A DNA stretch of 64,000 nt from an uncultured Solirubrobacteraceae bacterium (GTDB lineage: Bacteria; Actinomycetota; Thermoleophilia; Solirubrobacterales; Solirubrobacteraceae), in contig CADCVQ010000148.1 in the NCBI GenBank assembly GCA_902806175.1, forward strand, positions 47,200-111,199. The letters are read 5' to 3'. The notes under the pieces are model-generated. The model worked only from the letters and a program-made list of their open reading frames with translations. It was not told the DNA's origin and made no database searches. The translations under genes and the position numbers were made by a program. This document shows, piece after piece, positions 9,861-40,367 of this stretch; positions within the stretch are counted from its first letter, which is position 1, and each line of letters begins with the position of its first letter.

Positions 9861-11297
9861 ATGAACAGGTCAACGATCGCCTTCGACGACGGCACCGCGG
9901 ACAGGGACACGACCACAGCGGTCCAGGCACCGAGCCGCGTCGCGATGTGCAAGCTCATCGCTGCGGCGCTGGCGGCCATGACCATCGTGCTGGTGGCACC
10001 GGCCGGGGCCGGCGCCGCGATGACGTCCTTCAAGCCCGAGGCCCACGGCTTTCAATTCCAGAACAAGTTCAGCGTAAAGGTGCAGCTACGGTTTCCCAAG
10101 CTCGGGCTGAAGTCCATCAACCTCGGCAAGCATGGCTACGGCCTCTGCGGCGGGATGACCTACGCCGCCTTGGACTACTTCCGTGCGGGCAAGCCGATCC
10201 CGCCGGATCTCACGCAGCCGCGGCTGGGATCGCCGCTGTACAAGTACATCTTCCGCCGCCAGCTCGACACGTTGACCCTCGGCACGCTGGGCAAGTTCGC
10301 CACGATGCCGTTTGAGTCCACAACCGACCTTACGCGCCAGTCGCGGCGGGCGTTTCAGAACGTGATCAGAGGCGAGCTCGACCGCGGCCGTCCCGTTGCG
10401 CTGGGCCTGATCAAGACGAAGGGGCTTGACAGCTTCATGACGGGCAACCACCAGGTCTTGGCGATCGGCTACTCCCTGAGGCCCGTCACGATCACCACCA
10501 GGAAGTGCTTCCTCGGCATATGCAAGACGACGCGGCGCCGTGACAACGAGCCGATCATCGCGATCTACGATCCCAACTACCCCAGGCGAATCACCTACCT
10601 CCAGACCAACCACAACATCCAGACGTGGGACGAGGCCGGCAAGCAGTCGTTCACGAGGGTTCGCGGCTACTTTGCCACCCCGTACCGCTTCGCCTCGCCT
10701 CCGGCTCCGCCGCCGCCTCCGCCGCCGCTGTTCAACCCGCCTCCCCCTCCGCCACCGCCACCGCCGCCGCCACCCCCGCCACCGCCGCCGCCCCCGCCTC
10801 CCCCGGGCTCGATCAACACGTTGCTCGGGTTTGACGGCCTGCCGAACCAGACGCAGGTCAGGACCCAGTACCTGGCTTCGCACGGCATCACGTTTGGCAG
10901 GTCGTCGGACTTCAACATCAGCGGGGGAGCGCGCTGCGCGGGCGGCCAGATCAGAGAGCCCGGCATCTCCAGCGGCCCGTCGTTGAGCATCGGGTGCTTC
11001 ATCAACGAGCTCGCATGGGACTTCGGAACGGCGTTCAGGTTTGCCTCTGAGCAGCGCAGCGTGTCCTTCCTGATGCGGCTGAGCGCGCCGAACTCCCCGA
11101 AGACGGCCACCGTGCAAGCGTTCGGCGCCGGCGGCGGGGTGCTCGAGAGCCGCGACGTCACGCTCGGCCCGGGAGCGCCGGTCCTCGTCTCCTTCGCGCG
11201 CCCGAGCTCGCAGATCGCGGTCGTCAGGATCGCGGGCGGAGACACCTCTCAGCTCGAGGTCATGATCGACGATCTCTCCTACTCGCGCGATCCGTGA
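9861..11297 (+). CDS. Secreted two-domain protein: putative papain-fold cysteine peptidase domain, polyproline linker, unknown beta-rich C-terminal domain
   Basis: ATG at 9861 is preceded by AGGGGAG ten nucleotides upstream. Hydrophobic signal/anchor is MCKLIAAALAAMTIVLVAPAGAGAAM. Candidate Cys-His-Asp residues lie in GYGLCGGMTYAALDYF, GNHQVLAIGY and AIYDPNYP. A Pro run is followed by a domain of about 165 aa. Confidence 0.75.
   Translation: MNRSTIAFDDGTADRDTTTAVQAPSRVAMCKLIAAALAAMTIVLVAPAGAGAAMTSFKPEAHGFQFQNKFSVKVQLRFPKLGLKSINLGKHGYGLCGGMTYAALDYFRAGKPIPPDLTQPRLGSPLYKYIFRRQLDTLTLGTLGKFATMPFESTTDLTRQSRRAFQNVIRGELDRGRPVALGLIKTKGLDSFMTGNHQVLAIGYSLRPVTITTRKCFLGICKTTRRRDNEPIIAIYDPNYPRRITYLQTNHNIQTWDEAGKQSFTRVRGYFATPYRFASPPAPPPPPPPLFNPPPPPPPPPPPPPPPPPPPPPPPGSINTLLGFDGLPNQTQVRTQYLASHGITFGRSSDFNISGGARCAGGQIREPGISSGPSLSIGCFINELAWDFGTAFRFASEQRSVSFLMRLSAPNSPKTATVQAFGAGGGVLESRDVTLGPGAPVLVSFARPSSQIAVVRIAGGDTSQLEVMIDDLSYSRDP
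10698..10805 (+). repeat. (CCN)n tract encoding PPAPPPPPPPLFN followed by P x23
   Basis: Codon-by-codon reading gives 23 consecutive Pro codons at 10737-10805 (mixed CCG/CCA/CCC/CCT). A shorter run lies at 10698-10727. Confidence 0.92.
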
Positions 11298-11321
11298 CCG
11301 CTTGACGGTCGTTCTCTGACT

Positions 11322-11349
11322 CGGCGGTGCAGCTGCGGCTGCACCGCCG
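11322..11349. terminator. Stem-loop between convergent genes (polyPro protein and recN)
   Basis: CGGCGGTGCAGC-tgcg-GCTGCACCGCCG, a perfect 12-bp stem with a 4-nt loop. There is no strong U-tract. Confidence 0.55.
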
Positions 11350-11392
11350 GTCGTTCCCGGGGGGTTCAGACCTGCGGCGGCGACGATCGCGC

Positions 11393-13045
11393 TCAGGCCG
11401 CCCGCAACAGCTCCTCAGCATGCCTGCGCGCCGGCCCGTCCACGTCATCGGCACCGAGCATCCGCACGAGCTCGCGCACGACCTCGTCGTCGCGCAGCTC
11501 GCTCACCGTCGTCTGCGCCGGCGTCCGGCTCGTGTCCTTGGCGATCGCGAAGTGCCGCGCGGCGAGCGAGGCGACCTGCGGCAGGTGGGTGATGCAGATG
11601 ACCTGGCGATCGGCGGCGAGGTCGCGCAGCTGGTCGCCGACGGCGCGGGCGGTCTGGCCGCCGATGCCCGCGTCGACCTCGTCGAAGACGAGCGTCGCGC
11701 CGCCGCCCGCGGCGGCAACGCCCATCAGCGCGAGCATGACGCGCGAGAGCTCACCGCCGGAGGCGGTCTCGCGCAGCGGGCCGGCCGGCACGCCCGGGTT
11801 CGGCGCGATCAGGAACTCGACGCTGTCGGCGCCGGCCGGCCCCGGCGCGCGGGGCTCGAGCGAGACCTCGAACGCGGCGCCCTTCATCGCAAGCTCATCC
11901 AGGCGCGCGCGGACGGCGCGGGCGAGCTTCGGCCCTGCCGCGGCGCGCGCCTTGCGCAGTGCGTCGCTGCCGGCCTGCAGCGCGGCGCGCGCTTCTTTCA
12001 GGCGCGTCGCGGCCGCCGCGATCGCCACCTCGGCGGCGCCCAGCTCCGCGCGGCGCGCGCGGCACACCTCGGCGTGCGCGAGCACCGCGGCGATCGTGCC
12101 GCCGTGCTTTCGCTCGAGCCGCTCGAGCACGCTGAGGCGCTCCTCGACTGCGTCCAGGCGCCCCGGCTCGGCGCCGAGGCCGTCGGCGTACGCGCGCAGC
12201 TCGCGGGCGAGGTCCGCGGTCTCGTCGGCCAATGCGCGCCAGCGCTCCCCGAGCGTGTCGAGCGCCGGATCGATCCCGCGCGCGCCGAGCAAGCCGCGCT
12301 CCGCGCTCGCCAGCAGGCTCGCAATTCCCGTCTCGTCGGCGGCCGCCGCCTCGGCAGCGGTCAGCGCTGCCGTGCCGAGCGCCTCGACGTGACGCAGGCG
12401 GGCGCGCTCGGCGCGCAGCGCCAGCGCCTCCTCCTCGCTGGGCTCGACGGCATCGATCTCCGCGAGCTCGAAGTCGAGCAGGTCAAGCTCGCGCTCCCTC
12501 GCCCCAGCCAACGCCCGCAGCTGCGCGAGCGCCGCCTCGGCGTCGCGGGCCGCCGCGTACGCCGCTGCCACCGTCGCGCGCCGGGCGAGCTGCGCCTCGC
12601 CGCAGAAGCCGTCGAGGATGTCGAGCTGCGCTCCGGCGAGGGCGAGCTTGCGGTGCTCGTGCTGGCCGTAGAACGTGATCAGCGACTCGGCGAGCTCGCG
12701 CAGGTCGGTCACCGTCGCCGAGCGGCCGTTGACGAGCGCCCGCGTGCGCCCGTCCGCGCCGATGCGGCGGGCCAGCACGACCTCCGTCGCATCGGCCGCC
12801 AGCCGCTCGCCGAGCTCGCCGCGCAGCGCGTCGGGCAGCTCGAAGACCCCCTCGACATACGCCTCCGCCGCCCCGGGCCGCACGATGCCCGGCTTCGCGC
12901 GGCCGCCCAGCAGCAGGTCGAGCGCGTGCGCGAGCACGGTCTTGCCCGCGCCCGTCTCCCCCGTCAGGACGTTCAGGCCGGCCGCCAGGCGCAGCTCGGC
13001 CCGCTCGATCAGCAGGAGGTTCTCGACGCGCAGCTCGCAGAGCAT
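11393..13045 (-). CDS. recN: DNA repair protein RecN
   Basis: 550 aa. Has an N-terminal Walker A (LNVLTGETGAGKT), a long coiled-coil middle region, and a C-terminal SGGELSRVMLAL signature plus a Walker B-like FDEVDAGIGG. Confidence 0.95.
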   Translation of the reverse strand: MLCELRVENLLLIERAELRLAAGLNVLTGETGAGKTVLAHALDLLLGGRAKPGIVRPGAAEAYVEGVFELPDALRGELGERLAADATEVVLARRIGADGRTRALVNGRSATVTDLRELAESLITFYGQHEHRKLALAGAQLDILDGFCGEAQLARRATVAAAYAAARDAEAALAQLRALAGARERELDLLDFELAEIDAVEPSEEEALALRAERARLRHVEALGTAALTAAEAAAADETGIASLLASAERGLLGARGIDPALDTLGERWRALADETADLARELRAYADGLGAEPGRLDAVEERLSVLERLERKHGGTIAAVLAHAEVCRARRAELGAAEVAIAAAATRLKEARAALQAGSDALRKARAAAGPKLARAVRARLDELAMKGAAFEVSLEPRAPGPAGADSVEFLIAPNPGVPAGPLRETASGGELSRVMLALMGVAAAGGGATLVFDEVDAGIGGQTARAVGDQLRDLAADRQVICITHLPQVASLAARHFAIAKDTSRTPAQTTVSELRDDEVVRELVRMLGADDVDGPARRHAEELLRAA

Positions 13046-30594: not shown

Positions 30595-31155
30595 CTACGC
30601 GCGCGACATGTAGTCGCCGCTCGCCGTCTGCACCTTGACGCGATCGCCGATGTTCACGAACAGCGGGACGCGGATCGTGGCGCCCGTCTCGAGCGTCGCG
30701 GGCTTGTCACCGCCGCCGGAGGCGGTGTCGCCGCGCAGCCCCGGCTCGGTCTGGGTGACCTCGAGCTCGACGGAGGAGGGCAGCTGCAGGTCGCCGGGAT
30801 TGCCGTCGATGAACAGCACGTCGACGGTGTCGTTGGCCTTGGTCCAGCGCAGGGCGTCGGCGACGGAGGCGGCGGGAACGGCGATCTGCTCGTAGGACTG
30901 GGCGTCCATGAAGTGCGCCTCGGCGCCGTCGGAGTAGAGAAACTGCATCTTGCGCGCCTCGGTGTGCACGGAGCGGAACTTCTCGCCCGCACGGAAGGTC
31001 TTGTCGATGACGTTGCCGTCGCTCGCGCGGCGCAGCTTCGTGCGCACGAATGCGCCGCCCTTGCCCGGCTTGACGTGCTGGAAGTCGAGCACCTTGAAGA
31101 TCGTGCCGTCGACCTCGATGTGGTTGCCGTTCTTCAGTTGGTTGGTGCTGATCAT
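30595..31155 (-). CDS. efp: Elongation factor P
   Basis: 186 aa. MISTNQLKNGNHIEVDGTIFKVLDFQHVKPGKGGAFVRTKLR is a near-canonical EF-P N-terminus. Confidence 0.97.
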   Translation of the reverse strand: MISTNQLKNGNHIEVDGTIFKVLDFQHVKPGKGGAFVRTKLRRASDGNVIDKTFRAGEKFRSVHTEARKMQFLYSDGAEAHFMDAQSYEQIAVPAASVADALRWTKANDTVDVLFIDGNPGDLQLPSSVELEVTQTEPGLRGDTASGGGDKPATLETGATIRVPLFVNIGDRVKVQTASGDYMSRA

Positions 31156-31540
31156 GGCTGCGCGTCAGTGTAGGGCGCACCTGCGGCTCGGAGCCTGTGG
31201 ATCAGCTGGTGCGGCGCGATCTCGAGCAGCCCTCTGGCGGCGGTGGTGGCCGGGATGCCGTGCACGCGCGTGACGTCGCGCCGGTCCAAGGCTGCGCGAG
31301 CGGTGAAAGCGAATGCCGGGGCGGCTGCGGCCGCCGCAGCCGGGACGGTCACGTCGATCCGGCGCTCGGTCCAGCGGACGTAGCCGTGCACGCGACGCGG
31401 CGCCGGATCGCGGGGTCGTCCAGGCCGGCCGCCGCGAGCTGGTCGCTGCGGATCCGCCCGTGTTGTCGCGCGGCGACCGCGGCAACGCGTGCGTCGGGTG
31501 TGTCGAATCGTCGTCGCGGGGCGACGGTCATTCGACACAC
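31152..31540 (-). pseudogene. Decayed remnant of an AbiEi-antitoxin-domain / DUF559-type gene
   Basis: One frame reads MTVAPRRRFDTPDARVAAVAARQHGRIRSDQLAAAGLDDPAIRRRVA, which is AbiEi-N-like. The reading then has to switch frame to continue VHGYVRWTERRIDVTVP...TRVHGIPATTAARGLLEIAP. The middle and the C-terminal DUF559 part are missing. Confidence 0.5.
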
Positions 31541-31552
31541 CCCCCGCCGCGG

Positions 31553-31912
31553 CTACTCCCCCGCCGCCTCCTGCTCGGCGTCCCACGCCGCCACCACCCG
31601 CTTGGCGGCGAACACGCGCCACGCATCCTCGAGCAGCTCCCCCAGCTCGACGGGATCGACGGCCTCCAGGCGCACGAGGACGTACGGCCAGCCGTCGTAG
31701 TGCGGCGTCGTGAAGAACACGTCCGGGTCGCCCTGCAGCAGCGCCTCGCGCTCGCCCATGTCGGTGACGCGCACCACCAGCGCGTCGGGGTTCGTGCGCA
31801 TGCGGCACATGCCCTTGCCGCGCACGCGCAGCGCGGCCGTGCCATAGGACGTCCCGACCTCGACCCCCGGCAGCCGCGTCCCGATCTCGACGACGTCCTC
31901 CCAGCTCGGCAT
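31553..31912 (-). CDS. MmcQ/YjbR family DNA-binding protein
   Basis: 119 aa. LPGVEVGTSYGTAALRVRGKGM...FFTTPHYDGWPYVLVRL is the pattern typical of the YjbR family. Confidence 0.78.
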   Translation of the reverse strand: MPSWEDVVEIGTRLPGVEVGTSYGTAALRVRGKGMCRMRTNPDALVVRVTDMGEREALLQGDPDVFFTTPHYDGWPYVLVRLEAVDPVELGELLEDAWRVFAAKRVVAAWDAEQEAAGE

Positions 31913-32211
31913 CGCGACAACGTAGCGTCCGAACGCAATCGACCGCGATGAGCTGCGCGCCCTGCAGGCGCCGCTCGAGGAGCGCTGCGCCGAGCAGCGC
32001 GGAGCGCGTCGTGCTGCAGACGCTGCGCACGACGCCCCCGGTCACCTCGCGGACGGGTCCACTACTCGCCCGACCGCGCGACGAAACAAAATCCACCCCG
32101 GCCACGGGTACCGATTTACGATGCACCCGCGGACCGAAGCCAGGAGCGATCTCCGAAAGCTCCCGCGGCACGCCCCTGCCGATGCCACCCCACGTCGAAA
32201 GGAACGCCACC

Positions 32212-32670
32212 ATGGCCAACCCCCTGACGGTCATCATCCCGATGAAGCAGGACGCGGACATCGCGAAGCTGGCGGGAATCCTTCACGCCCAGCAGGATGC
32301 GATCGACGCGGCGCGCAGTGGCATCGCGACGCTTCATTACACATTTTTCCTGATCCTCGATCACTCATCGCCCAACCTGCAGCTTCAACCCGGCAGCTCC
32401 GGCCCGTTCAGCCTCGCCGTGATCACCATCTTCGACGGTGAACTGGACGACTACATCGCGGCCGTCGTCAAGGATCTCGGGCCGGCCTTCTCCCTGCTGC
32501 TGTCCTACAGCGCCGACGGACAGCATCTCCTCCCGGTGGCCGATCACTACGACGAGTTCGCCGCCTACATCCGCGGCAACGACGCTTCGCAGCACCCGCC
32601 CAACGACCAGCTGCGCTTCTGGGGCGCCTACCCGGACACCGCTCAGCAGATCGTCGGCGACACCAGCTGA
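32212..32670 (+). CDS. Uncharacterised small protein (152 aa), divergent member of the family also found at 35581-36129 and 36126-36719
   Basis: ATG at 32212 is preceded by GAAAGGAAC. It shares four ordered motifs with the two operon proteins (see findings). Confidence 0.65.
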   Translation: MANPLTVIIPMKQDADIAKLAGILHAQQDAIDAARSGIATLHYTFFLILDHSSPNLQLQPGSSGPFSLAVITIFDGELDDYIAAVVKDLGPAFSLLLSYSADGQHLLPVADHYDEFAAYIRGNDASQHPPNDQLRFWGAYPDTAQQIVGDTS

Positions 32671-32688: not shown

Positions 32689-33153
32689 ATGTCCGCGCGC
32701 CACACCCGGCCGTTCCCCACGCGGGAGATCCACCACGCGATCGACATCGACGCCCCGCCCGCGGCTGTCTGGGCGGTTCTGGCCGACACCGCGGCCTACG
32801 GCGAGTGGAACCCGTTCATACCCCGGCTCGAGGGCGACTGGCGGGTCGGCGCCAAACTCTCTGCGCTCGTCGCGACGCCCGGCGGCGGCCGGCCGAGGAC
32901 CTTCGAGCAGACCGTGCTCGCGGTGCAACCCGGCCGCGAGCTGCGCTGGATCGTGCGCGTGCTCGTGCCCGGCCTGCTCGACGGCGTGCACAGCTTCGGA
33001 CTGCAGCCGCTGCCCGCCGGCGGCACGCGCTTCACGCAGGTCGAGCGCTTCCGCGGCCTGCTCGTACGCCTGCTACGCCGGCAGATCGACAAGACGCAGC
33101 TCGGCATGGAGCAGATGAACGGGGCCCTCAAGCGGCGCGTCGAAGGCCGGTAA
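32689..33153 (+). CDS. SRPBCC domain-containing protein
   Basis: 154 aa. IDIDAPPAAVWAVLADTAAYGEWNPF is a typical SRPBCC/polyketide-cyclase-like N-terminus. It starts 18 nt after the preceding gene. Confidence 0.8.
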   Translation: MSARHTRPFPTREIHHAIDIDAPPAAVWAVLADTAAYGEWNPFIPRLEGDWRVGAKLSALVATPGGGRPRTFEQTVLAVQPGRELRWIVRVLVPGLLDGVHSFGLQPLPAGGTRFTQVERFRGLLVRLLRRQIDKTQLGMEQMNGALKRRVEGR

Positions 33154-33174: not shown

Positions 33175-34158
33175 CTACTCCGGCAGGATCGCCGGCTTGG
33201 TCTCACGCGACCGGCGCCGGTGTGACTCCCAGTAGGCCTCCGAGCGGAAGTGCAGCAGCGGGTCGTCGGAAAGCTCGATCCCGGGCGGCATCCGCGTCGG
33301 GTCGAAGACCCACTCGGCGACTGCCTCGGAGTCCTCGTGCAGGCGCTCGATCACGATCTCGCCCGCGACGACCTGCGGGCGGCTCTCGGGCCACAGCACC
33401 CGGAGGTCGTCGATCTCGTCGCCCTCCTGCGCGAGCTGGAAGACGAGCTTCCACGCCACCGGCGCCTGCTCGACGCGCTGCTTGATCTCGCTGACGACGT
33501 ACTGCGGCGGCAGCAGCGTGTCGTCCTTCGGGTCGATGTTGGCGACCCCCGCCACCGGCATGAAGCGGAAGCGGAAGGCCTGCCGGCGGCCGTCGGCGTC
33601 GACGAGGTAGTAGGAGTGAAAGCCGTTGAAGCGCGCGGTCGCGAAGCTCTCCGGCGGCGCGAGCGTCGCCGCCGCCTTGATGCCCGGCAGCGCGCGCGGG
33701 ATGCGCGGCGCGAGGAAGGCGAGCATCCGCAGCGGGTGCGGCGAGCCGCCCGGCAGCGCGGCACGCGTGTTGACCACCATCGCGTGGAAGTCGTCGGGCG
33801 TGCGCGGCGGGAACGCCGCGAGGTTCAGCGCCGTCCACGACGTGTGGTCGCCGGACGGCAGGGCGAAGCGCACCCCCATCCCGAGCGGGTTGCCGCGCTT
33901 GCCGTCGACGCGGTCGGCGAGGTAGGGGCTCGAGCCGCCGTTGGACAGGCGCACGACGACGTCGATGCGGCCGCTGTGGAAGAGCTCTGCCGTCGACAGC
34001 GCGCCGATCTCGGGGGTCGGCGTGAAGTGCCCGTGGAATGCGATCCCGCGGGCGTGCCCGCGCTTGTGGCCGGGCACGTTGTTCATGTGCTTCTCCATCG
34101 CCCCGAGCACCTTCTTGACGCGGGCGGGCCCTCCGAGCTTGTGTGGGCTCTCGCTCAT
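33175..34158 (-). CDS. Catalase-related (small-subunit clade) haem peroxidase
   Basis: 327 aa. Distal-His region is KRGHARGIAFHGHF and the proximal-Tyr region is HFRSEAYWESHRRR. It is much shorter than a monofunctional catalase. GGAGGTG ribosome-binding site. Confidence 0.85.
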   Translation of the reverse strand: MSESPHKLGGPARVKKVLGAMEKHMNNVPGHKRGHARGIAFHGHFTPTPEIGALSTAELFHSGRIDVVVRLSNGGSSPYLADRVDGKRGNPLGMGVRFALPSGDHTSWTALNLAAFPPRTPDDFHAMVVNTRAALPGGSPHPLRMLAFLAPRIPRALPGIKAAATLAPPESFATARFNGFHSYYLVDADGRRQAFRFRFMPVAGVANIDPKDDTLLPPQYVVSEIKQRVEQAPVAWKLVFQLAQEGDEIDDLRVLWPESRPQVVAGEIVIERLHEDSEAVAEWVFDPTRMPPGIELSDDPLLHFRSEAYWESHRRRSRETKPAILPE

Positions 34159-34195
34159 CGCGCCACCTCCATCTCGCTGGACATCGTGATGCTCA

Positions 34196-35584
34196 TCAGC
34201 CCGCCGTCCCGTCCACGAGCGCCCGCAGCGCGGTCATCCCCGGGACGAACAGGTACTCGCCGCCGCGCGTGACGACGAACGCCTCCTGCGGCGAGACGAA
34301 GAACGGCTTCTCGCCCTGGATCGTCATCTTGCCGCTGCCTGACGGTTCGCCCAGCAAGAAGTCCTTGTCGGTGCCCAGGCCGAAGATGTTGCCGTCGTTG
34401 ATCCACGGCGTCTGGACGCCCTCGAACTGGCGGAAGATGCTCGCCTGGAAGCTCACGAACACGAGGCCGCGCTCGGCGCCGTCGTCCTCCAGGGCGCCCT
34501 CGGGCAGCACCTTGCCGTAGGGCATCCCGCGACGGATCATGCGGTGGCGCAGGCTCAGCTTGCCGGCCGGGTCCAGCGCGTCGCGCGGATTGCAGCGGCG
34601 GATGTGCGCGCCCAGCGGGCAGCGCCGGCCGTCGAGGTCGTTGCGGTAGCGAAAGTCGTTGGCACCCGGGGCGGCGGGATCGAACTCGGGATCCGGGCCG
34701 TGCGGGTGCGTCTGGACCGGCGTGCCGTCCTGCCAGCGGCCGACGACCTTGGCGGCGAGCTTGCGCGCATCGCCGTAGGGGTAGCGCGCGGCGGCCGCGG
34801 CGATCGTGCGCCGCCACAGCGCGACGTCCTGGTGCAGCTTGCGCCAGACCATGTACGTGCCGTTGCGCGCCATCGCGCCCGTGGGCGCCGGCGGCAGCCG
34901 CCGAGCGCGATCGACGCTCGTGTCCTCGTCGGGATAGCCGAGGACGAACTCGCCGGGCGCCAGCGGGCGCCAGCGTCCGTCGCGCTCGGGAACGCCGCCA
35001 CCGGGCGCCTTGTCCTCCGTCGCTCCGGCGATCGCCGGCTGCGCGAAGCCGTCGGCGAAGCCGAAGTGCTCGCGCGCGCCGTGCAGCAGCTCGGCGTCCT
35101 GCTGGTAGAGGACGCTGACCCCGCCGGTGTCCTTCATCGCCGCCTGCATCTTGGCCAGCGCACGCCGATGGTCGGCCGTCGTCTGCGCGTTGATCGTCAG
35201 CAGCACGTGGGCGTCGCCGGTGCCCAGCCCCTGGTCCCATTTCGGCGGCGCGCTCGGGCCGGTGTCGCCGAGCAGCTCCGCGCGCGCCGCCATCCCCTGG
35301 CGAAACTCGTGCGAGAAGCTGCCGATCGTCTCCTGCGAGACGCCGAGCGCGGCCAGGCCGCTCGCCGTCAGCGCGACGTTCAGCGTCGTCAGCGGCTTCT
35401 CGCTCCACGGCGCGGCGTTCGTGACGTGGTCGACGACGCCGGCGAGCCATGCCCGCGCCTGCTCTGGCTCGCAGTCGATCCGCACGAACGCATAGGACGC
35501 GCAGTCATAGGAGTTGCCGTAGGCGCGCAGGATGTCGCCCTGGATGTCCGACAGCTCGAGCGCCGGCAGCGCCGCGCGGATCAT
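34196..35584 (-). CDS. Dyp-type peroxidase
   Basis: Start at MIRAALPALELSDIQGDIL (ATG at 35584), overlapping the upstream stop as ATGA. Has the GXXDG motif EHFGFADGFAQP, the proximal-His region GAHIRRCNPRD, and GLVFVSFQASIFRQFE. Confidence 0.9.
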   Translation of the reverse strand: MIRAALPALELSDIQGDILRAYGNSYDCASYAFVRIDCEPEQARAWLAGVVDHVTNAAPWSEKPLTTLNVALTASGLAALGVSQETIGSFSHEFRQGMAARAELLGDTGPSAPPKWDQGLGTGDAHVLLTINAQTTADHRRALAKMQAAMKDTGGVSVLYQQDAELLHGAREHFGFADGFAQPAIAGATEDKAPGGGVPERDGRWRPLAPGEFVLGYPDEDTSVDRARRLPPAPTGAMARNGTYMVWRKLHQDVALWRRTIAAAAARYPYGDARKLAAKVVGRWQDGTPVQTHPHGPDPEFDPAAPGANDFRYRNDLDGRRCPLGAHIRRCNPRDALDPAGKLSLRHRMIRRGMPYGKVLPEGALEDDGAERGLVFVSFQASIFRQFEGVQTPWINDGNIFGLGTDKDFLLGEPSGSGKMTIQGEKPFFVSPQEAFVVTRGGEYLFVPGMTALRALVDGTAG

Positions 35585-36129
35585 GCTGCGCCGAACTGCT
35601 CGAGGAACTCCTTGCGGCGCTCCGCCGGCTTCATCTCCTGCGCGCGGACGGCGAAGTCGATCAGCCGCGCGCGCTTGTCCAGCGCGGTCTTGATCTGCTT
35701 GACCGACGCGTTGGGGTAGGCCGCGAACGCGACGCCCGAGTCGACCTGGTTGCGGTGCAGGTAGGCCTTCAGCGCCACGCCCTCGGCGGGCTGCGGGCAG
35801 CCGACGCAGTGACCCCAGACCTCCGCCGCCTCGACCGCCATCAGCGCGACGAGCTCGTGCAGGTAGCTGTCGACGTCGCCGTCGAGGTTGCTCGTGAACA
35901 GCAGAAACTGCGTGCCCAGCGGGTCGCGCAGGTCCGTGCCCGGCGCGACCGGCATGTCCGGCACGACGATCCAGCGCGCCATGTGCGTGCGCGGCAGCTT
36001 GGCGAGCGGGCTCCCCGCGCCGTTGTCGAGGCCGTCGAGGTAGGCCCGCAGCGCCCCCTCCTCGCCCGGCTTGATCGGCGTCCAGATCATGAGCGAGTAC
36101 GTCTTGCCGGCGATGTTCGGAGATCTCAT
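35581..36129 (-). CDS. Uncharacterised protein (182 aa), family member 2
   Basis: ATG at 36129 overlaps the upstream stop and its own stop overlaps the Dyp ATG, both as ATGA. Coding-like composition. Confidence 0.7.
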   Translation of the reverse strand: MRSPNIAGKTYSLMIWTPIKPGEEGALRAYLDGLDNGAGSPLAKLPRTHMARWIVVPDMPVAPGTDLRDPLGTQFLLFTSNLDGDVDSYLHELVALMAVEAAEVWGHCVGCPQPAEGVALKAYLHRNQVDSGVAFAAYPNASVKQIKTALDKRARLIDFAVRAQEMKPAERRKEFLEQFGAA

Positions 36130-36719
36130 AGGTAGCGCTGCGCGTCCTCGATGAAGGCGTCCCAGGCCGCGTCGAACTGCTCCTCGGGGAGGTGGCGGAC
36201 ACGGTGGGCGAACATCTCCAGGCGCTCCTCGAGCTCCAGCGCCGAGCGCACGATCGTCACCGTCGCGTCCGGATAGGCGCAGTGGTAGTGGCTCGCGTCG
36301 ACCTCGTGGACCTTGAAGAACGCCTGAAACGGCCCCGCCGGCAGCGGGCCGGGAAAGCGCCGCGAGCTGCCCCAGAAGGTGTACATGCCGGTCGTCAGCA
36401 CGCGCACCGAGGAGTCGATGTACTGCGCCCAGCTGCCGTTGAAGCTGACCTCGAAGAACAGGTGCGGGTAGCGCAGCCGGCGCACGGTCTGCGGGGGCCC
36501 GTTGTAGGGCAGCTCGCGGATCAGCGACCAGCTCGCGAAGCTGATGAACGACAGCTTGTCCATCGCCTCCAGCGACTTCGGGGCCGCCCGCGTGAGCGTG
36601 AACATGAACGGCATCCAGAAGCGGCCCCACGGCTTTTGCGTCGTGAAGAGCGTGATCGAGGTCGTGCGGCCGCAGACGTTGCTCGGCGGCGCGTCGGGCG
36701 AGACCGCGGGCAGGTTCAT
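36126..36719 (-). CDS. Uncharacterised protein (197 aa), family member 3
   Basis: ATG at 36719 overlaps the hydrolase stop as ATGA. Rich in aromatic residues, with a coding-like composition. Confidence 0.7.
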   Translation of the reverse strand: MNLPAVSPDAPPSNVCGRTTSITLFTTQKPWGRFWMPFMFTLTRAAPKSLEAMDKLSFISFASWSLIRELPYNGPPQTVRRLRYPHLFFEVSFNGSWAQYIDSSVRVLTTGMYTFWGSSRRFPGPLPAGPFQAFFKVHEVDASHYHCAYPDATVTIVRSALELEERLEMFAHRVRHLPEEQFDAAWDAFIEDAQRYL

Positions 36720-37759
36720 GCGTCCCTCGCGAGCTCGCCGAGGATGATCGGGTGCCAGTCGCGGCCCGCGTGCTCGCCGACGAACACGTCGAGGTGCCCG
36801 TAGCCGGGCACGATGTGCATCGTGTGGCGCCCCGGGTCGTGCTTCTCGAACCACTCGAACGTGCGCATCTGACTCTCGGGCAGAAAGCAGTTGTTGCGCC
36901 CGCCGGTGATGAACGAGAAGCGCGCGTCGGTCAGCGGCGCCTGGGCGACGAAGCTCTCGGGCAGCTCGGGCCGCCCCTCGACGCTGACGAGGTGGCCGGC
37001 GCGGACGCATTGCGCGATCTGCTTGAAGAACGTCAGCGGGGCGGGGCCGAACTCGCCCTTCGTCCACTCGTGCGTCGCGGGGCTGAGCTGCTCGTGCGTC
37101 CACAGCGTCGGGTTGCCGGCGCCGAACATGAAGCTCGACACCTTGCAGACGCCGTTGTCGCAGGCGCGGCGCGAGAGCTTGCAGTACGCGGTCAGCGCCT
37201 TGGGCAGCAGCCAGGGCGCGCCCCGCTCGCCCCAGCGCGGATCGAGGTAGCCCAGCAGCCGCGACACCGGCGGCACGATGTAGTCGAGCTTGAGCTTCGC
37301 CACCTTCGTCACGACCGGATGCAGCGAGACCGCGCTCGCGACGACGGTGCGCACCTCGGGCACGAGGCCCGCACAGGCGGCCATCATGAAGCTCGTCGAG
37401 CCCTGGCAGTGCGTGATCGCCTGGATCGAGTCCGCGCCGGTCAGCTCGACGACCTTCTTGACGGCGACGGGGTGGTCGAGCACCGCGCCCTGGTCGAGCG
37501 TCCACGTGTTGTTGGGCACGTCCATGCTCGCCCGCCACGTCTCCATGAAGACGTCGTAGCCCTCGTCGACGAGCGCCTCGATCAGCGTGCGCGGGGTCGG
37601 CGGGCGCCAGATCTCCGTGCGCACGCCGACGCCGTGGACGAGCAGCACCGGCCCCTTCGTCGGCTCCTTCGGGCCGCGGACGCGGATGAGGTTGCAGGGA
37701 ACCCCGTCGGCGACGTCGAGCGCGATGAGCTCGTCGGTGTGCGCGGCGGCGGTCGTCAC
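36716..37759 (-). CDS. Alpha/beta-fold hydrolase (Cys at the nucleophile-elbow position)
   Basis: 347 aa. Has an oxyanion-like VLLVHGVG, an elbow ITHCQGST (small-x-Cys-x-small), and a C-terminal catalytic-His region, GYGHLDVF. Confidence 0.8.
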   Translation of the reverse strand: MTTAAAHTDELIALDVADGVPCNLIRVRGPKEPTKGPVLLVHGVGVRTEIWRPPTPRTLIEALVDEGYDVFMETWRASMDVPNNTWTLDQGAVLDHPVAVKKVVELTGADSIQAITHCQGSTSFMMAACAGLVPEVRTVVASAVSLHPVVTKVAKLKLDYIVPPVSRLLGYLDPRWGERGAPWLLPKALTAYCKLSRRACDNGVCKVSSFMFGAGNPTLWTHEQLSPATHEWTKGEFGPAPLTFFKQIAQCVRAGHLVSVEGRPELPESFVAQAPLTDARFSFITGGRNNCFLPESQMRTFEWFEKHDPGRHTMHIVPGYGHLDVFVGEHAGRDWHPIILGELARDA

Positions 37760-37777
37760 GCCTGGGCCACCGCGTCG

Positions 37778-40195
37778 TCAGTCCTTCTTGGAGCCGGGGC
37801 CGAACGCGTCCCAGAGGCTCCCGGCGAAGAGCCCGCCGAAGCGCCCGATCGCATCGACGCGGTGCGCCGGATCGACACGGAACGTCGTCATCTGGACCGC
37901 GAAGTCCTGCGGCAGGACGTGCAGGATCCCGCTCGCGACGACGTCGGCCGCGTCGTCGCCGTCGCCGGGCTCGACGTGTCCGGCGAGGATCCGCGTGAAG
38001 AGCGTCGTCGTGTCGCTCCAGACGTCGAAGCCGCGATCGTCCTTGACCTCCTTGTAGCCGTTGAGCGTGATCGGATGACCCTCGCCGTCGGCGATCAGCA
38101 GGCGGTACTTCATGAGCTTGCGCTCCTCGCCGTCCTCGTCGGCGTCGACGAAGAGGTTGAACCAGCCCTTCTGCACCTCGAGCCTGCCGCCGAGCGCGTC
38201 GCACTGGACGTGGCCGGTGATCGTGCCCGGATGCTGCGAATCCTCGATGAAGCGCTCGATGTCGTCCATCAGCACCGTCACGTGGAACATGCAGGCCGTC
38301 TTTGACTTCTTGCCCTGGCGAAAGCCCTTGTCGTAGTCGTCCTCGCCGAAGGTGATGAAGCCACGCATCTTCTCGGTGAAGCGCAGCGACGCGGGGTGCT
38401 CGCTGGCGCTCGGAGCGGCGGCGGCGGTCGGGCCACCCTCTTCATCGGCCGGCGGGGGTGGCGGGGGTGCGGTCACGGTGTGTCCCTTCATGTCTTCGAG
38501 GATGGCGTCGGCGAAGCGGTCGGCGAGGCCGGCGATCGTGAGGCTCGGGTTGGGGCCGACTGGCCCGGGCATGACCGAGCCGTCGGCGATGTGCAGGCCG
38601 GGGTGGTTGTAGACGCGCCCGAAGGGGTCGACGACGCCCTCCTGATCGTCACGCCCCATCGGGCAGCCGCCGAGCGCGTGCACGGTCACGACCCGGCTGA
38701 GCAGCCAGATCGGGTTGTCCAGGAAGGTCCCGCCCAGCTCGTCGGCAACGTCCTTGGAGATGTCGCGCACGCGCTCGAAGTACTCCTTGGACGACCCGTT
38801 CTTCTTCCAGTCGATCGCCAGGCCGCCGTCGCGCAGCGACATGATCCCCTCGGGGACGTCGCGGCCCATGCCCAGCAGCGGCAGGAAGCCCGAGGACTCG
38901 CTGCAGTCGCCCAGCAGCTCTGAGACATCGCCCCCGACGTCGGAATCCGCGTGCGTGAACAGACCGCGCACGACCTTCGGCAGGTTGCGGCGCTGCTCGA
39001 GCAGCGAGGACGGCGTGTCGATGAGCTGCAGCATCCACGAGACGAACTCTGGCTGGCCGGCGTCCTCGAGGTAGAAGCCGCGCTGTCCGCGCGCGCCGCC
39101 GTCGCTCTCGTCGGGCACGCGGATCGCGCTCGTGATGACCGGCGCGTGGGCGGAGTCCAGGACGTGTGGCACCTTCTTTCCCTCGACCTCGCTCATGCAG
39201 TTGCGCGCGAAGGTCAGCAGGTCGCCGTTGCCGCCGAAGCGCGAGCCGAGCATCGGGCTCAGGCCGGGGAACGCGGCGCGGTTCTTCAGCAGCAGGTACG
39301 TCGTGCCGAGCGTGCCGGCCGACAGGATCAGGCGATCGCAGGTGATCGCGTGGCGATCGAGGCGCGCGGTGTCGGTCTTCGTCCCCTCCGCCTCGGCGTC
39401 GTGGATGACGTAGTCGACCTGGTAGCCGCCACGGTCGCGCGCCTCGAAGGAGCGCACCTCGTGGCGCGTGCGGATGTCGGCGCCGGCGTGCCATGCCGCT
39501 GTGATGTACGTGTAGTCCAGCGAGTTCTTGGAGCCGTGGTTGCAGCCCAGGTCGCACTCCCCCGTGAGCTTGCAGGTCAGGCGCGTGCGGCCGTGGATGT
39601 TGGGCCGCTCCTCCTTGATCGGCTCGCCGACCATCGGCGGGTCGCCGTCGTTGGCGAACGTCACCGCGAGGTTGACCAGGCGCCAGTCCAGCCCGAGCTT
39701 CTGCGCCGCGTCGCGGAAGGCGAGCGTCTTGAGCGTCTTGTCGTAGGGGTCCTGGTCGAGCGGGTACTTCTGGACGTTCATCATCCGCTCGACGCGGTCG
39801 TAGTGCGGGTCCAGGTCGGCGCGCGTGACGGGCCAGTACTCGTAGCCGTCCTTCCACGAGCCGTTGCCGGGCTCCTCGCGCACGAACCACTCCTCGTCCT
39901 TGCGCAGCAGGACGTTGGCGTAGATCAGCGAGCCGCCGCCGAGGCCGCTGGCGACGATCGCGTCGATGTTGTCGAAGCTCCAGAGGTTGAACATCCCGTG
40001 CAGCCCCTCGCTGGGATCCCAGAACTGGCGCTTCATCCCCAGCGGCGAGCGCGGGAAGGAGTTGGGCGGGAAGGGCTTTCCGCGTTCGAGCAGGCAGACG
40101 CTGTGGCCGGCCTCGGCCAGCCGGTATGCCGTCACGGACCCGCCGAATCCGGATCCGACGACGACGGCGTCGAAATGTTCGGAAGCTGGACTCAC
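37778..40195 (-). CDS. GMC family oxidoreductase (cholesterol-oxidase-like) with a C-terminal extension of about 210 aa
   Basis: 805 aa (GTG start, GAGGTAGG upstream). FAD-binding fold is FDAVVVGSGFGGSV, with further GMC motifs GGGSLIYAN and HALGGCPMG. A Pro-rich linker, APPPPPPADEEGG, is followed by an extra domain. Confidence 0.9.
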   Translation of the reverse strand: MSPASEHFDAVVVGSGFGGSVTAYRLAEAGHSVCLLERGKPFPPNSFPRSPLGMKRQFWDPSEGLHGMFNLWSFDNIDAIVASGLGGGSLIYANVLLRKDEEWFVREEPGNGSWKDGYEYWPVTRADLDPHYDRVERMMNVQKYPLDQDPYDKTLKTLAFRDAAQKLGLDWRLVNLAVTFANDGDPPMVGEPIKEERPNIHGRTRLTCKLTGECDLGCNHGSKNSLDYTYITAAWHAGADIRTRHEVRSFEARDRGGYQVDYVIHDAEAEGTKTDTARLDRHAITCDRLILSAGTLGTTYLLLKNRAAFPGLSPMLGSRFGGNGDLLTFARNCMSEVEGKKVPHVLDSAHAPVITSAIRVPDESDGGARGQRGFYLEDAGQPEFVSWMLQLIDTPSSLLEQRRNLPKVVRGLFTHADSDVGGDVSELLGDCSESSGFLPLLGMGRDVPEGIMSLRDGGLAIDWKKNGSSKEYFERVRDISKDVADELGGTFLDNPIWLLSRVVTVHALGGCPMGRDDQEGVVDPFGRVYNHPGLHIADGSVMPGPVGPNPSLTIAGLADRFADAILEDMKGHTVTAPPPPPPADEEGGPTAAAAPSASEHPASLRFTEKMRGFITFGEDDYDKGFRQGKKSKTACMFHVTVLMDDIERFIEDSQHPGTITGHVQCDALGGRLEVQKGWFNLFVDADEDGEERKLMKYRLLIADGEGHPITLNGYKEVKDDRGFDVWSDTTTLFTRILAGHVEPGDGDDAADVVASGILHVLPQDFAVQMTTFRVDPAHRVDAIGRFGGLFAGSLWDAFGPGSKKD

Positions 40196-40367
40196 ACCTA
40201 CCTCTGCGCCTACCTATAACCGATGCTCCGGCAGGGTGCAACGCAGCACCGGCGGCCTGCACTTTCGTGCTGTTGCGGCGCATCGCGTGGCGAGTTTGGA
40301 CCGCTGAGCGCCCAGAACCGCCAATCGTCGTCGGCCGACGCCGCGGGCCTGCCGGCGGCGCCCGCTG

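Follow-up and report, generated by a model that had tools for sequence, protein, structure and literature searches.

A family of small paired proteins beside DyP-type peroxidases of class V, and a two-module operon that carries it in uncultured Solirubrobacteraceae

What role might two small proteins of no annotated family have in an operon that also encodes a flavoenzyme, a hydrolase and two different haem enzymes? The question is raised by a 64,000-nucleotide (nt) stretch of DNA from an uncultured Solirubrobacteraceae bacterium (assembly GCA_902806175.1, contig CADCVQ010000148.1, positions 47,200 to 111,199; 71% G+C), which we call the window, and which carries six minus-strand open reading frames (ORFs) at 33175-40195, free of internal stops on translation. 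A first-pass annotation had described a unit of these six genes with three ATGA overlaps and two short gaps, had assigned four of the products to families and had matched the combination to no described pathway. All of the positions and junctions were read again in the sequence, the family calls (GMC, Cys-elbow hydrolase, DyP and catalase-related) were borne out by Pfam, NCBIfam and PDB profile searches, and the literature likewise yielded no such pathway. From first gene to last, the operon reads:

37778..40195, minus strand: GMC flavoenzyme of 805 amino acids (aa), with Pfam GMC_oxred_N/C
36716..37759, minus strand: alpha/beta hydrolase of 347 aa, with a Cys elbow and a His motif
36126..36719, minus strand: SD-A, 197 aa, in no Pfam or NCBIfam family, a paralogue of SD-B
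35581..36129, minus strand: SD-B, 182 aa, with the invariant T-H-x-A-R-W motif of its family
34196..35584, minus strand: DyP-type peroxidase of 462 aa, assigned to class V (formerly C/D) by profiles and PDB matches, with no Tat signal
33175..34158, minus strand: small catalase-related haem protein of 327 aa, MAP-2744c type by Pfam Catalase and PDB 3e4w

The name SD is our own, for this small-domain family. Four structural claims, each of which we consider very likely, answer part of the question: the six genes form an operon, the operon consists of two modules, SD-A and SD-B are paralogues in one large family, and that family is linked specifically to class V DyPs. Function is a more tentative matter. 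We propose a cytoplasmic operon that may process oxidised fatty-acyl lipids, and give this reading slightly less than an even chance.

SD-A and SD-B as members of one large family

The two small proteins had been listed as separate unknowns, a description that does not stand. They resemble each other at 26% identity (5e-15, BLASTP) and with a profile-profile probability of 98.3% (hhalign), as expected of paralogues. Neither matched anything in Pfam, NCBIfam, PADLOC or PHROGs. The close homologues of SD-A fall into 157 clusters, every one 'hypothetical', and close SD homologues at 57-91% identity are 'hypothetical' proteins from Solirubrobacteraceae-type metagenome-assembled genomes (MAGs). The family is nevertheless large: a joint SD profile run against 1.84 billion cluster representatives matched 3069 clusters at E <= 1e-3, of which 1619 also passed E <= 1e-10, counted at 50% identity.

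Domain architectures were read from 148 analysable sequences of the 150 matches listed for the joint profile. They comprise 81 two-domain tandems and 63 single-domain proteins, and include three SD-SD-DyP fusions, a group in which SD-SD is followed by about 300 aa, and two proteins in which about 370 aa precede SD-SD. With separate profiles for the two paralogues, 72 tandems were found to carry a 197-like domain followed by a 182-like domain, which is the gene order here; the SD-A-like domain thus forms the N-terminal half of the fused two-domain homologues. A profile of the extra fusion domains together with 'catalase family proteins' of Rhodococcus and Deinococcus, in which R-D-x-H and R-x-x-x-Y are invariant, matched MAP-2744c (3e4w) at 3.6e-22 and then true catalases. 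Because both SD-SD-DyP and SD-SD-catalase-related fusions occur, the SD pair is found covalently joined to both kinds of haem enzyme that this operon encodes.

Fold prediction gave a partial view of the domain. The AlphaFold2 model of SD-B (pLDDT 84.5) has a ferredoxin-like beta-alpha-beta-beta-alpha core with extra helices; the model of SD-A (pLDDT 51) was too poor and was left unused. Foldseek matches of SD-B were weak (E >= 4.6e-3; TM-score 0.3-0.44 when normalised by the query and at most about 0.6 when normalised by the smaller target), and nearly all were dimeric alpha+beta barrel proteins, among them ABM monooxygenases, Dabb/SP1 proteins, hydroxynitrile lyase and WhiE-ORFI. The SD profile, run against PDB, gave a non-significant match (E = 0.53). 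The two paralogues probably pair into a heterodimer that is a pseudo-symmetric alpha+beta barrel.

Two other ideas about the pair were rejected. SD is not a degenerate half-DyP, the hhalign probability between the SD and DyP profiles being 0.2%. In many metagenomic loci SD-A and SD-B share one frame split by a single stop, which is followed by a ribosome-binding site and ATG; programmed readthrough or selenocysteine insertion was dismissed, since the stops mix TAA, TAG and TGA, and because each is followed by a ribosome-binding site and a start codon, these loci are ordinary gene pairs.

SD-SD-catalase-related fusions are also present on two phage-like contigs (loci bear L numbers of our own). 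One (L024 8001-9986, 661 aa) neighbours tail-fibre collar, Amidase_2 and helix-turn-helix genes; the other (L121 5959-7842, about 628 aa) comes from IMG/VR, on a viral contig with a G+C content of 39%, and no second match turned up among 2.9 million viral contigs. No DyP lies near either fusion. PADLOC gave no relevant match for the six proteins or the fusions and, with PHROGs also without a match, an anti-phage defence system or a phage protein family was rejected as a reading.

SD genes stand just upstream of class V DyP genes

Across at least six phyla, SD genes lie almost always just upstream of genes for class V DyPs. In plasmid and replicon contexts picked from the top DyP matches, an SD gene directly preceded the DyP gene in all 12 inspected:

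Granulicella (Acidobacteriota): SD-A, SD-B, DyP
Deinococcus radiodurans: DR_A0144 (SD), DR_A0145 (DrDyP), DR_A0146 (catalase-like)
Rhodococcus koreensis: SD, DyP, catalase family protein
Sinorhizobium: SD, DyP, NIPSNAP
Nostoc and Streptomyces: SD, DyP
Kitasatospora: SD-like match about 340 nt 5' of the DyP match, by tblastn coordinates alone
Bradyrhizobium: SD, SD, DyP, SRPBCC
Sphingobium, Novosphingobium, Roseomonas and Brucella anthropi: catalase family protein, SD, DyP

A further three long contigs, one of them from a Geobacteraceae MAG, encode a fused SD-SD, a DyP, a P450 and a patatin. We also scanned 80 metagenomic loci that are relatives of one tandem SD query; the scan was seeded by pattern, and its counts are a lower bound. 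DyP follows the SD genes immediately in 48 of the 51 loci with at least 600 nt downstream, or in 49 if L060, with its long DyP ORF, is included. Where there was room to read on (28 loci), the gene after DyP encodes a P450 in 19 and a catalase-like protein in 1. The P450 is CYP107-like, with an ordinary Cys loop, and beyond it the neighbouring genes differ from locus to locus. Patatin was rejected as a constant partner, being present in the 3 long contigs and in 0 of the 80 metagenomic loci.

Two haem enzymes with intact predicted active sites

The DyP of the window is a predicted haem peroxidase of class V. It matched TIGR01413 at 111 bits (cutoff 100.5), DyP_N at 45.2 (cutoff 27.5) and Dyp_perox_C at 30.1 (cutoff 20), and its PDB ranking is led by D. 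radiodurans DrDyP (8re3, 2.7e-75), followed by ancestral and fungal D-type enzymes (AauDyP/BadDyP), AnaPX and DyP2. Invariant across nine SD-linked DyPs are G-F-A-D178-G, in which Asp178 is the distal Asp of the GXXDG motif, the proximal H327 within G-A-H-I-R-R-x-N-P-R, and the distal Arg, R351/R352, within R-R-G-x-P-Y.

The product of the sixth gene matched Pfam Catalase at 3e-19 (69.8 bits, cutoff 25; profile positions 46-338 of 383) and PDB 3e4w from end to end (1.2e-32, residues 6-318). It belongs to the size class of about 33 kDa that lacks the C-terminal catalase domains. The distal His35, R305 and the proximal Tyr309 (R-x-x-x-Y) are invariant in 13 sequences from two subfamilies, as are Arg70 and Ser72. 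Both haem enzymes therefore retain their predicted catalytic and haem-ligand residues. MAP-2744c itself is said, in work by Pakhomova et al. of 2009, to be an organic-hydroperoxide-dependent peroxidase with no catalatic activity.

The operon joins two modules

The six genes divide into module 1, the GMC and hydrolase genes, and module 2, comprising SD-A, SD-B, the class V DyP and the catalase-related protein. A scan of GTDB with one genome per species, again pattern-seeded and giving lower bounds, found the six genes together in at least 17 species-level loci, each of them in a MAG of an uncultured member of Solirubrobacteraceae, Thermoleophilia or 'Actinomycetes'. All 17 show the same order in the same pepP-efp chromosomal slot, with protein identities of 54-94%, except that in L017-L019 the catalase-related gene is inverted (about 10570-11560). 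The six-gene order is no chance juxtaposition. As the 17 loci are syntenic and vertically related, they indicate maintenance under selection and are not independent proof of linkage.

The inversion marks one sub-branch of Solirubrobacterales-type MAGs. In L017 (9227-10042) the DyP match covers residues 27-294 only, a shortening that may reflect a frameshift or decay.

In the window, 18 nt separate the GMC stop from the GTG start of the hydrolase gene, ATGA stop/start overlaps join hydrolase to SD-A, SD-A to SD-B and SD-B to DyP, and 37 nt separate DyP from the catalase-related gene. L001 has a 4-nt overlap at every one of its five junctions. The hydrolase/SD-A junction, where the two modules meet, is an ATGA overlap in the window and in L001, L002, L009, L014, L017-L019, L119 and L120, across SD identities from about 57% to near-identical; it is a 1-nt overlap in L003 and L012 and a gap of a few nt in the other loci. 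Stoichiometric co-translation, which the first-pass annotation had proposed, is only a possible reading of the overlaps. Its view of a single unit holds in part: the six genes are translationally coupled and keep their order in 17 loci, and the small proteins co-occur with DyP in other phyla, but the unit is not indivisible, for outside the lineage it falls into two modules.

Module 1 was found alone by tblastn against plasmids, the extended GMC and Cys-hydrolase genes occurring together without SD or DyP in Streptomyces, Arthrobacter and Pseudonocardia. On pKVP1 of Streptomyces viridifaciens (L109 11348-15182) the genes encode GMC, a 613-aa hypothetical protein, the hydrolase and an acetoacetate-decarboxylase-family protein, the last of which hints at a beta-keto-acid step in the chemistry of the module; these genes share one strand and overlap or abut. 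In Pseudonocardia the C-terminal extension of the GMC enzyme is a standalone 197-aa gene, and on Ralstonia solanacearum megaplasmids GMC, extension and hydrolase form one polypeptide of 1150 aa. This fusion, seen in more than 120 Ralstonia megaplasmid records, is annotated 'choline dehydrogenase' in L110 (6980-10432), where it adjoins a TetR regulator. Conversely, of the SD-DyP loci lying outside the Solirubrobacterales lineage, more than 100 in number, none contains the pair of extended GMC and Cys-hydrolase genes. Because each module occurs elsewhere without the other, and each has its own Rosetta-stone fusions, the operon is a lineage-specific fusion: one uncultured actinobacterial lineage (Solirubrobacteraceae/Thermoleophilia) joined two widespread modules. 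Since the modules are split elsewhere, peroxide made and used in place, as first proposed for this operon, is not general to the peroxidase module.

The GMC enzyme has a cholesterol-oxidase-like core (residues 1 to about 575) and an unannotated C-terminal domain (about 575-805), and the latter, of about 230 aa, had no match in Pfam or PDB searches. Pfam scores were 65.9 bits for GMC_oxred_C (cutoff 24.6) and 36 for GMC_oxred_N (cutoff 23), the GxGxxG motif of the FAD fold reads V-V-V-G-S-G-F-G-G, and the closest PDB likeness is to type I cholesterol oxidase (1b4v, 6e-27). The NCBIfam cholesterol oxidase equivalog NF058674 matched at 2e-60 over residues 7-331 alone, with 204.8 bits against a cutoff of 850, so the enzyme appears cholesterol-oxidase-like and falls outside the equivalog. 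It could be an O2-reducing oxidase or a dehydrogenase, which its sequence cannot separate.

The hydrolase scored 23.7 bits against Abhydrolase_1, marginally under the cutoff of 25.8. Its nucleophile elbow is T-H-C-Q-G-S, with Cys118, and its His motif G-Y-G-H-L-D; the Cys elbow, recognised at first sight of the sequence, and the His motif are kept in 20 of 20 loci (L001-L020) and in distant homologues of Streptomyces, Ralstonia and Pseudonocardia at 32-49% identity. Overall, an elbow of the form sm-x-Cys-x-sm and the motif G-Y-G-H-(L/I/Q)-D are conserved in 23 of 23 homologues. The nearest PDB relatives are gastric and lysosomal acid lipases and polyhydroxyalkanoate (PHA) synthases, at a weak E of about 0.01-0.02; 21 bits against the NCBIfam PHA synthases (E about 1e-4), whose cutoffs are 622 and 365, place it outside class I/III. 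Taken together, these features lead us to infer that module 1 pairs a secondary-alcohol-type GMC flavoenzyme with a Cys alpha/beta hydrolase or acyltransferase.

A possible role in processing oxidised fatty-acyl lipids

Lipid-related genes accompany the SD-DyP core in three kinds of neighbourhood. The first, on the three long contigs, has a patatin-type lipase and a P450. In the second, genes for TetR, acyl-CoA thioesterase, 3-hydroxyacyl-CoA dehydrogenase and oleate hydratase are divergent from those for catalase-like, SD and DyP proteins, and D. radiodurans keeps the TetR and 3-hydroxyacyl-CoA dehydrogenase genes of this set. The third is the present operon, with its lipase/PHA-synthase-like Cys hydrolase and cholesterol-oxidase-like GMC enzyme. 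On the strength of these neighbourhoods, each version can be read as an acyl ester or thioester hydrolase, a secondary-alcohol oxidiser and a core of SD, DyP and a second haem protein, and the three independent kinds may point to oxidised fatty-acyl substrates. A lipid or oxylipin-type substrate had been guessed from the window itself; the neighbourhoods in other phyla lend that guess independent support.

The second cassette is near-identical on the alphaproteobacterial plasmids of Sphingobium (L114), Novosphingobium (L115) and Roseomonas mucosa (L116) and partial in Brucella anthropi (L117); human-skin and clinical isolates are among the hosts. Flanking IS5, IS66, IS21 or Tn3 elements make it appear mobile.

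From these associations we infer a heterodimer, a physical complex and a lipid substrate, and propose the following scheme. The SD pair would act in physical association with the class V DyP and another haem enzyme, here the catalase-related protein and elsewhere a P450. The Cys hydrolase would act on an ester or thioester, freeing or transferring its acyl chain, and the SD pair would bind the lipid and possibly oxygenate it. Both haem enzymes would then use an organic hydroperoxide as oxidant, giving a hydroxy or epoxy product by reduction or rearrangement, and the GMC enzyme would turn the resulting secondary alcohol into a ketone. If the GMC enzyme passes electrons to O2, the DyP could consume the H2O2 that results.

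Several observations weigh against this proposal. Sequence and fold searches of the SD proteins point to no function, and the likeness of the hydrolase to lipases and PHA synthases is marginal. The lipid-related neighbours are annotations, a case of guilt by association, and lipid genes are absent from the surroundings of many SD-DyP loci. The partner P450, being CYP107-like, was rejected as a hydroperoxide-specialised enzyme of the CYP74 type. All 17 syntenic loci share their ancestry, the 80 metagenomic loci are non-independent relatives of one query, and the GMC and hydrolase genes accompany SD-DyP in one vertically related lineage only, where their coupling could be a regulatory convenience rather than a sign of one pathway.

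In a stronger version of the proposal, which we regard as quite unlikely, the SD-A/SD-B pair would be a new oxygenase, cofactor-free or using the haem of its partner, that adds O2 to an unsaturated fatty acyl chain; the hydroperoxide so made would go for conversion to the haem enzyme attached to the pair, be it DyP, catalase-related or P450. We know of no oxygenase activity for SD or DyP proteins. If true, this version would amount to a bacterial oxylipin or lipid-peroxide pathway without lipoxygenases or cyclooxygenase-type dioxygenases, and would supply the long-missing physiological reaction of bacterial class V DyPs.

Alternative explanations

The compact operon might be no more than two functionally unrelated operons, GMC-hydrolase and SD-SD-DyP-catalase-related, that came to lie side by side and were drawn together in this lineage. 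The modules are independent everywhere else and every co-occurrence is in syntenic, vertically related genomes, which is what this account expects; we nevertheless hold it to be unlikely, given that the hydrolase stop and SD-A start overlap as ATGA in the window and nine related loci, and that other SD-DyP clusters carry analogues of both module 1 genes (patatin or thioesterase for one, hydroxy-acyl dehydrogenase for the other).

Generic H2O2 management would involve no shared substrate: H2O2 made by the GMC enzyme as a by-product of an unrelated oxidation would be scavenged by the DyP and the catalase-like protein, with SD incidental. GMC enzymes often reduce O2 to H2O2, the operon holds two haem enzymes that use peroxide, and an OsmC peroxiredoxin-type gene stands beside the cluster in L001-L003. 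Every peroxidase-module locus outside the lineage, however, lacks a GMC gene, and the tight linkage and fusions of SD and DyP would be left unexplained. The D. radiodurans homologues bear on the same point, as does the activity reported for MAP-2744c. DR_A0146 is without catalase activity (PMC6300522), and DrDyP, which is six-coordinate low-spin and whose physiological substrate is unknown, is inactive towards H2O2 at physiological pH (PMC10820274). Plain H2O2 scavenging is disfavoured for these reasons and we consider it improbable.

Could the SD proteins instead be haem-handling accessories, concerned with binding, delivery, insertion or turnover of haem and outside the substrate chemistry? 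The alpha+beta barrel superfold, a candidate for the SD fold, has IsdG, HemQ and chlorite dismutase among its families that bind haem. Haem b is common to every recurrent partner (DyP, catalase-related protein and P450), and the T-H-x-A-R-W motif of SD-B contains an invariant His and Arg. Set against this, SD has no detectable homology to haem-binding barrels in the PDB profile search or to DyP by hhalign, a chaperone covalently fused to its client would be unusual, and such a factor is dispensable for most DyPs, catalases and P450s. To this possibility, too, we attach a low probability.

Aromatic or polyketide-like tailoring or degradation, with the SD pair acting in the manner of tandem ABM/SchA-type proteins, as cofactor-free oxygenases, cyclases or decarboxylases, while the DyP oxidises a quinone or phenol, is very unlikely: DyPs are best known for anthraquinone oxidation, P450s are frequent partners and SD weakly matches ABM-type barrels, including WhiE-ORFI (9lmn, Foldseek rank 38; profile E = 0.53) and a polyketide decarboxylase (9ltx), but all ABM-type matches are below significance, no polyketide synthase, non-ribosomal peptide synthetase or other core biosynthetic gene flanks the cluster in the window or occurs at the related loci, of which there were more than 100, and the cluster of this lineage sits amid housekeeping genes.

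Genomic setting of the operon

Those housekeeping genes (aroC/K/B, pepP, efp, nusB and dxs) surround the cluster in this lineage. In the window, aroC, aroK/aroB and a pepP-like M24 peptidase gene lie upstream, and a convergent SRPBCC gene, a 369-aa ORF, efp and then dxs lie downstream. Two further features concern expression:

40196..40367, minus strand: intergenic region of 172 nt from the pepP stop to the GMC start, read from the sequence
34155..34196, minus strand: mini-ORF of 13 codons, MSITMSSEMEVAR, read from the sequence

The 172-nt region is a probable promoter region, and GAGGTAGG, immediately 5' of the GMC GTG start, is a ribosome-binding site. A scan for sigma-70 consensus promoters and for terminators found nothing, a result that is uninformative because this is an actinobacterium of 71% G+C. 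The mini-ORF spans the 37-nt gap exactly: its ATG and the DyP stop codon TGA have an A in common, and its own TGA overlaps the ATG that starts the catalase-related gene. This small frame may pass on translational coupling or may have arisen by chance. In several related loci, such as L001 and L002, the DyP and catalase-related genes overlap directly, with no mini-ORF bridge.

The first-pass annotation had taken the unit to be cytoplasmic and free of transporters and regulators. This agrees with what we found: a signal-like or twin-arginine N-terminus is missing from all six proteins, and none has a 19-residue hydrophobic window above 1.6 on the Kyte-Doolittle scale.

The downstream side is variable. 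The 369-aa ORF (31152-32261, minus strand), between efp and the SRPBCC gene, has a strong coding G+C bias and no family in Pfam; related loci keep short segments of it alone, and some carry AbiEi/DUF559-like or other genes at that place. An SRPBCC gene, with the START-like lipid-binding fold, directly follows the cluster in the window (32689-33153, plus strand) and in L008 (7305-7742), and a larger one lies 3' of DyP in Bradyrhizobium (L118 7602-8849). An OsmC-family gene, of the organic hydroperoxide reductase type, is found downstream of the cluster in L001-L003 (L001 12874-13377) and adjoins it directly in L001 and L002.

Significance

The superfamilies of the GMC, hydrolase, DyP and catalase-related proteins were known already, as were the adjacency of DR_A0145 and DR_A0146 and the existence of DyP-P450 fusions. 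New here is a widespread, unannotated family of putative accessory proteins beside class V DyPs, at times fused to DyP or catalase-related domains. Bacterial class V DyPs have so far been characterised only with dyes and model substrates, and their physiological role is not established (PMC8395514); with the SD link, that role can be addressed by experiment in organisms that grow in culture, among them D. radiodurans with DR_A0144-0146, the plasmid-bearing Sphingobium, Novosphingobium and Roseomonas, and Granulicella. The work also defines another uncharacterised pair, that of extended GMC enzyme and Cys-hydrolase, which is fused in the plant pathogen R. solanacearum. If the lipid-peroxide reading is true, the operon would represent a previously unrecognised bacterial route for oxidised unsaturated fatty acids.

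Comparison with known systems

Literature searches found no paper on the SD family, on SD-DyP linkage or on either module, and nothing relevant on DyP with oleate hydratase or on GMC with hydrolase and acetoacetate decarboxylase. The closest known locus is that of D. radiodurans, DR_A0144-DR_A0145 (PDB 8RE2/8RE3)-DR_A0146, with the same core order of SD, class V DyP and small catalase-related protein. DR_A0144 matches the SD profiles at 8e-12 (A3) and 1.8e-21 (A4, a broad alignment), and DR_A0146 falls within the catalase-related profile. The locus differs in having one SD gene rather than two paralogues, in lacking GMC and Cys-hydrolase genes, in the TetR and 3-hydroxyacyl-CoA dehydrogenase genes upstream, and in DR_A0146, which at 361 aa belongs to another subfamily than the MAP-2744c-like protein here. 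The adjacency of DR_A0145 and DR_A0146 alone has been noted (PMC6300522), and the literature on these two genes makes no mention of DR_A0144 or of a pathway. For the sixth gene product the top PDB match is MAP-2744c of Mycobacterium avium ssp. paratuberculosis (33 kDa, PDB 3E4W), which is similarly small and has the same distal His and proximal Tyr/Arg.

Module 1 recalls other enzymes. With type I cholesterol oxidase (Streptomyces ChoA, 1B4V) the GMC enzyme shares an FAD-binding N terminus and a GMC C-terminal catalytic region, and its motifs V-H-A-L-G-G-C and G-P-N-P occupy what we take to be the positions of ChoA His447 and Asn485; unlike ChoA, it has an extra domain of about 230 aa and an obligate Cys-hydrolase partner, and it lacks a signal peptide. 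In the hydrolase, the H-x-Q-G elbow and the (Y)-G-H-L-D motif resemble G-H-S-Q-G and H-L-D-F of gastric and lysosomal acid lipases, and Cys replaces Ser as in PHA synthases, although all of these matches are marginal and no PHA genes lie near the operon. The SD family has a parallel in the dimeric barrels of the ABM, Dabb and SchA-like kinds (WhiE-ORFI, 9LMN), in that its tandem versions of about 400 aa are built like tandem ABM/SchA proteins; yet the SD domain, at about 180 aa, is far larger than the ABM domain of about 100 aa, and the ABM matches are non-significant.

An analogy in organisation lies with the catalase-related allene oxide synthase-lipoxygenase fusions of corals and cyanobacteria and with the fungal Ppo/linoleate diol synthases, in which a haem dioxygenase is fused to a P450. 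In these systems a haem domain of the catalase-related or P450 kind is joined to the protein from which its hydroperoxide comes. Unlike those systems, the loci described here have no lipoxygenase or animal-haem-dioxygenase domain, and their P450 is CYP107-like rather than CYP74-like. The arrangement is otherwise alike, with SD-SD fused to catalase-related domains or DyP, and DyP followed by P450; DyP-P450 fusions had come up in a 2022 survey, where a Ppo-like role was already a matter of speculation (PMC9719856).

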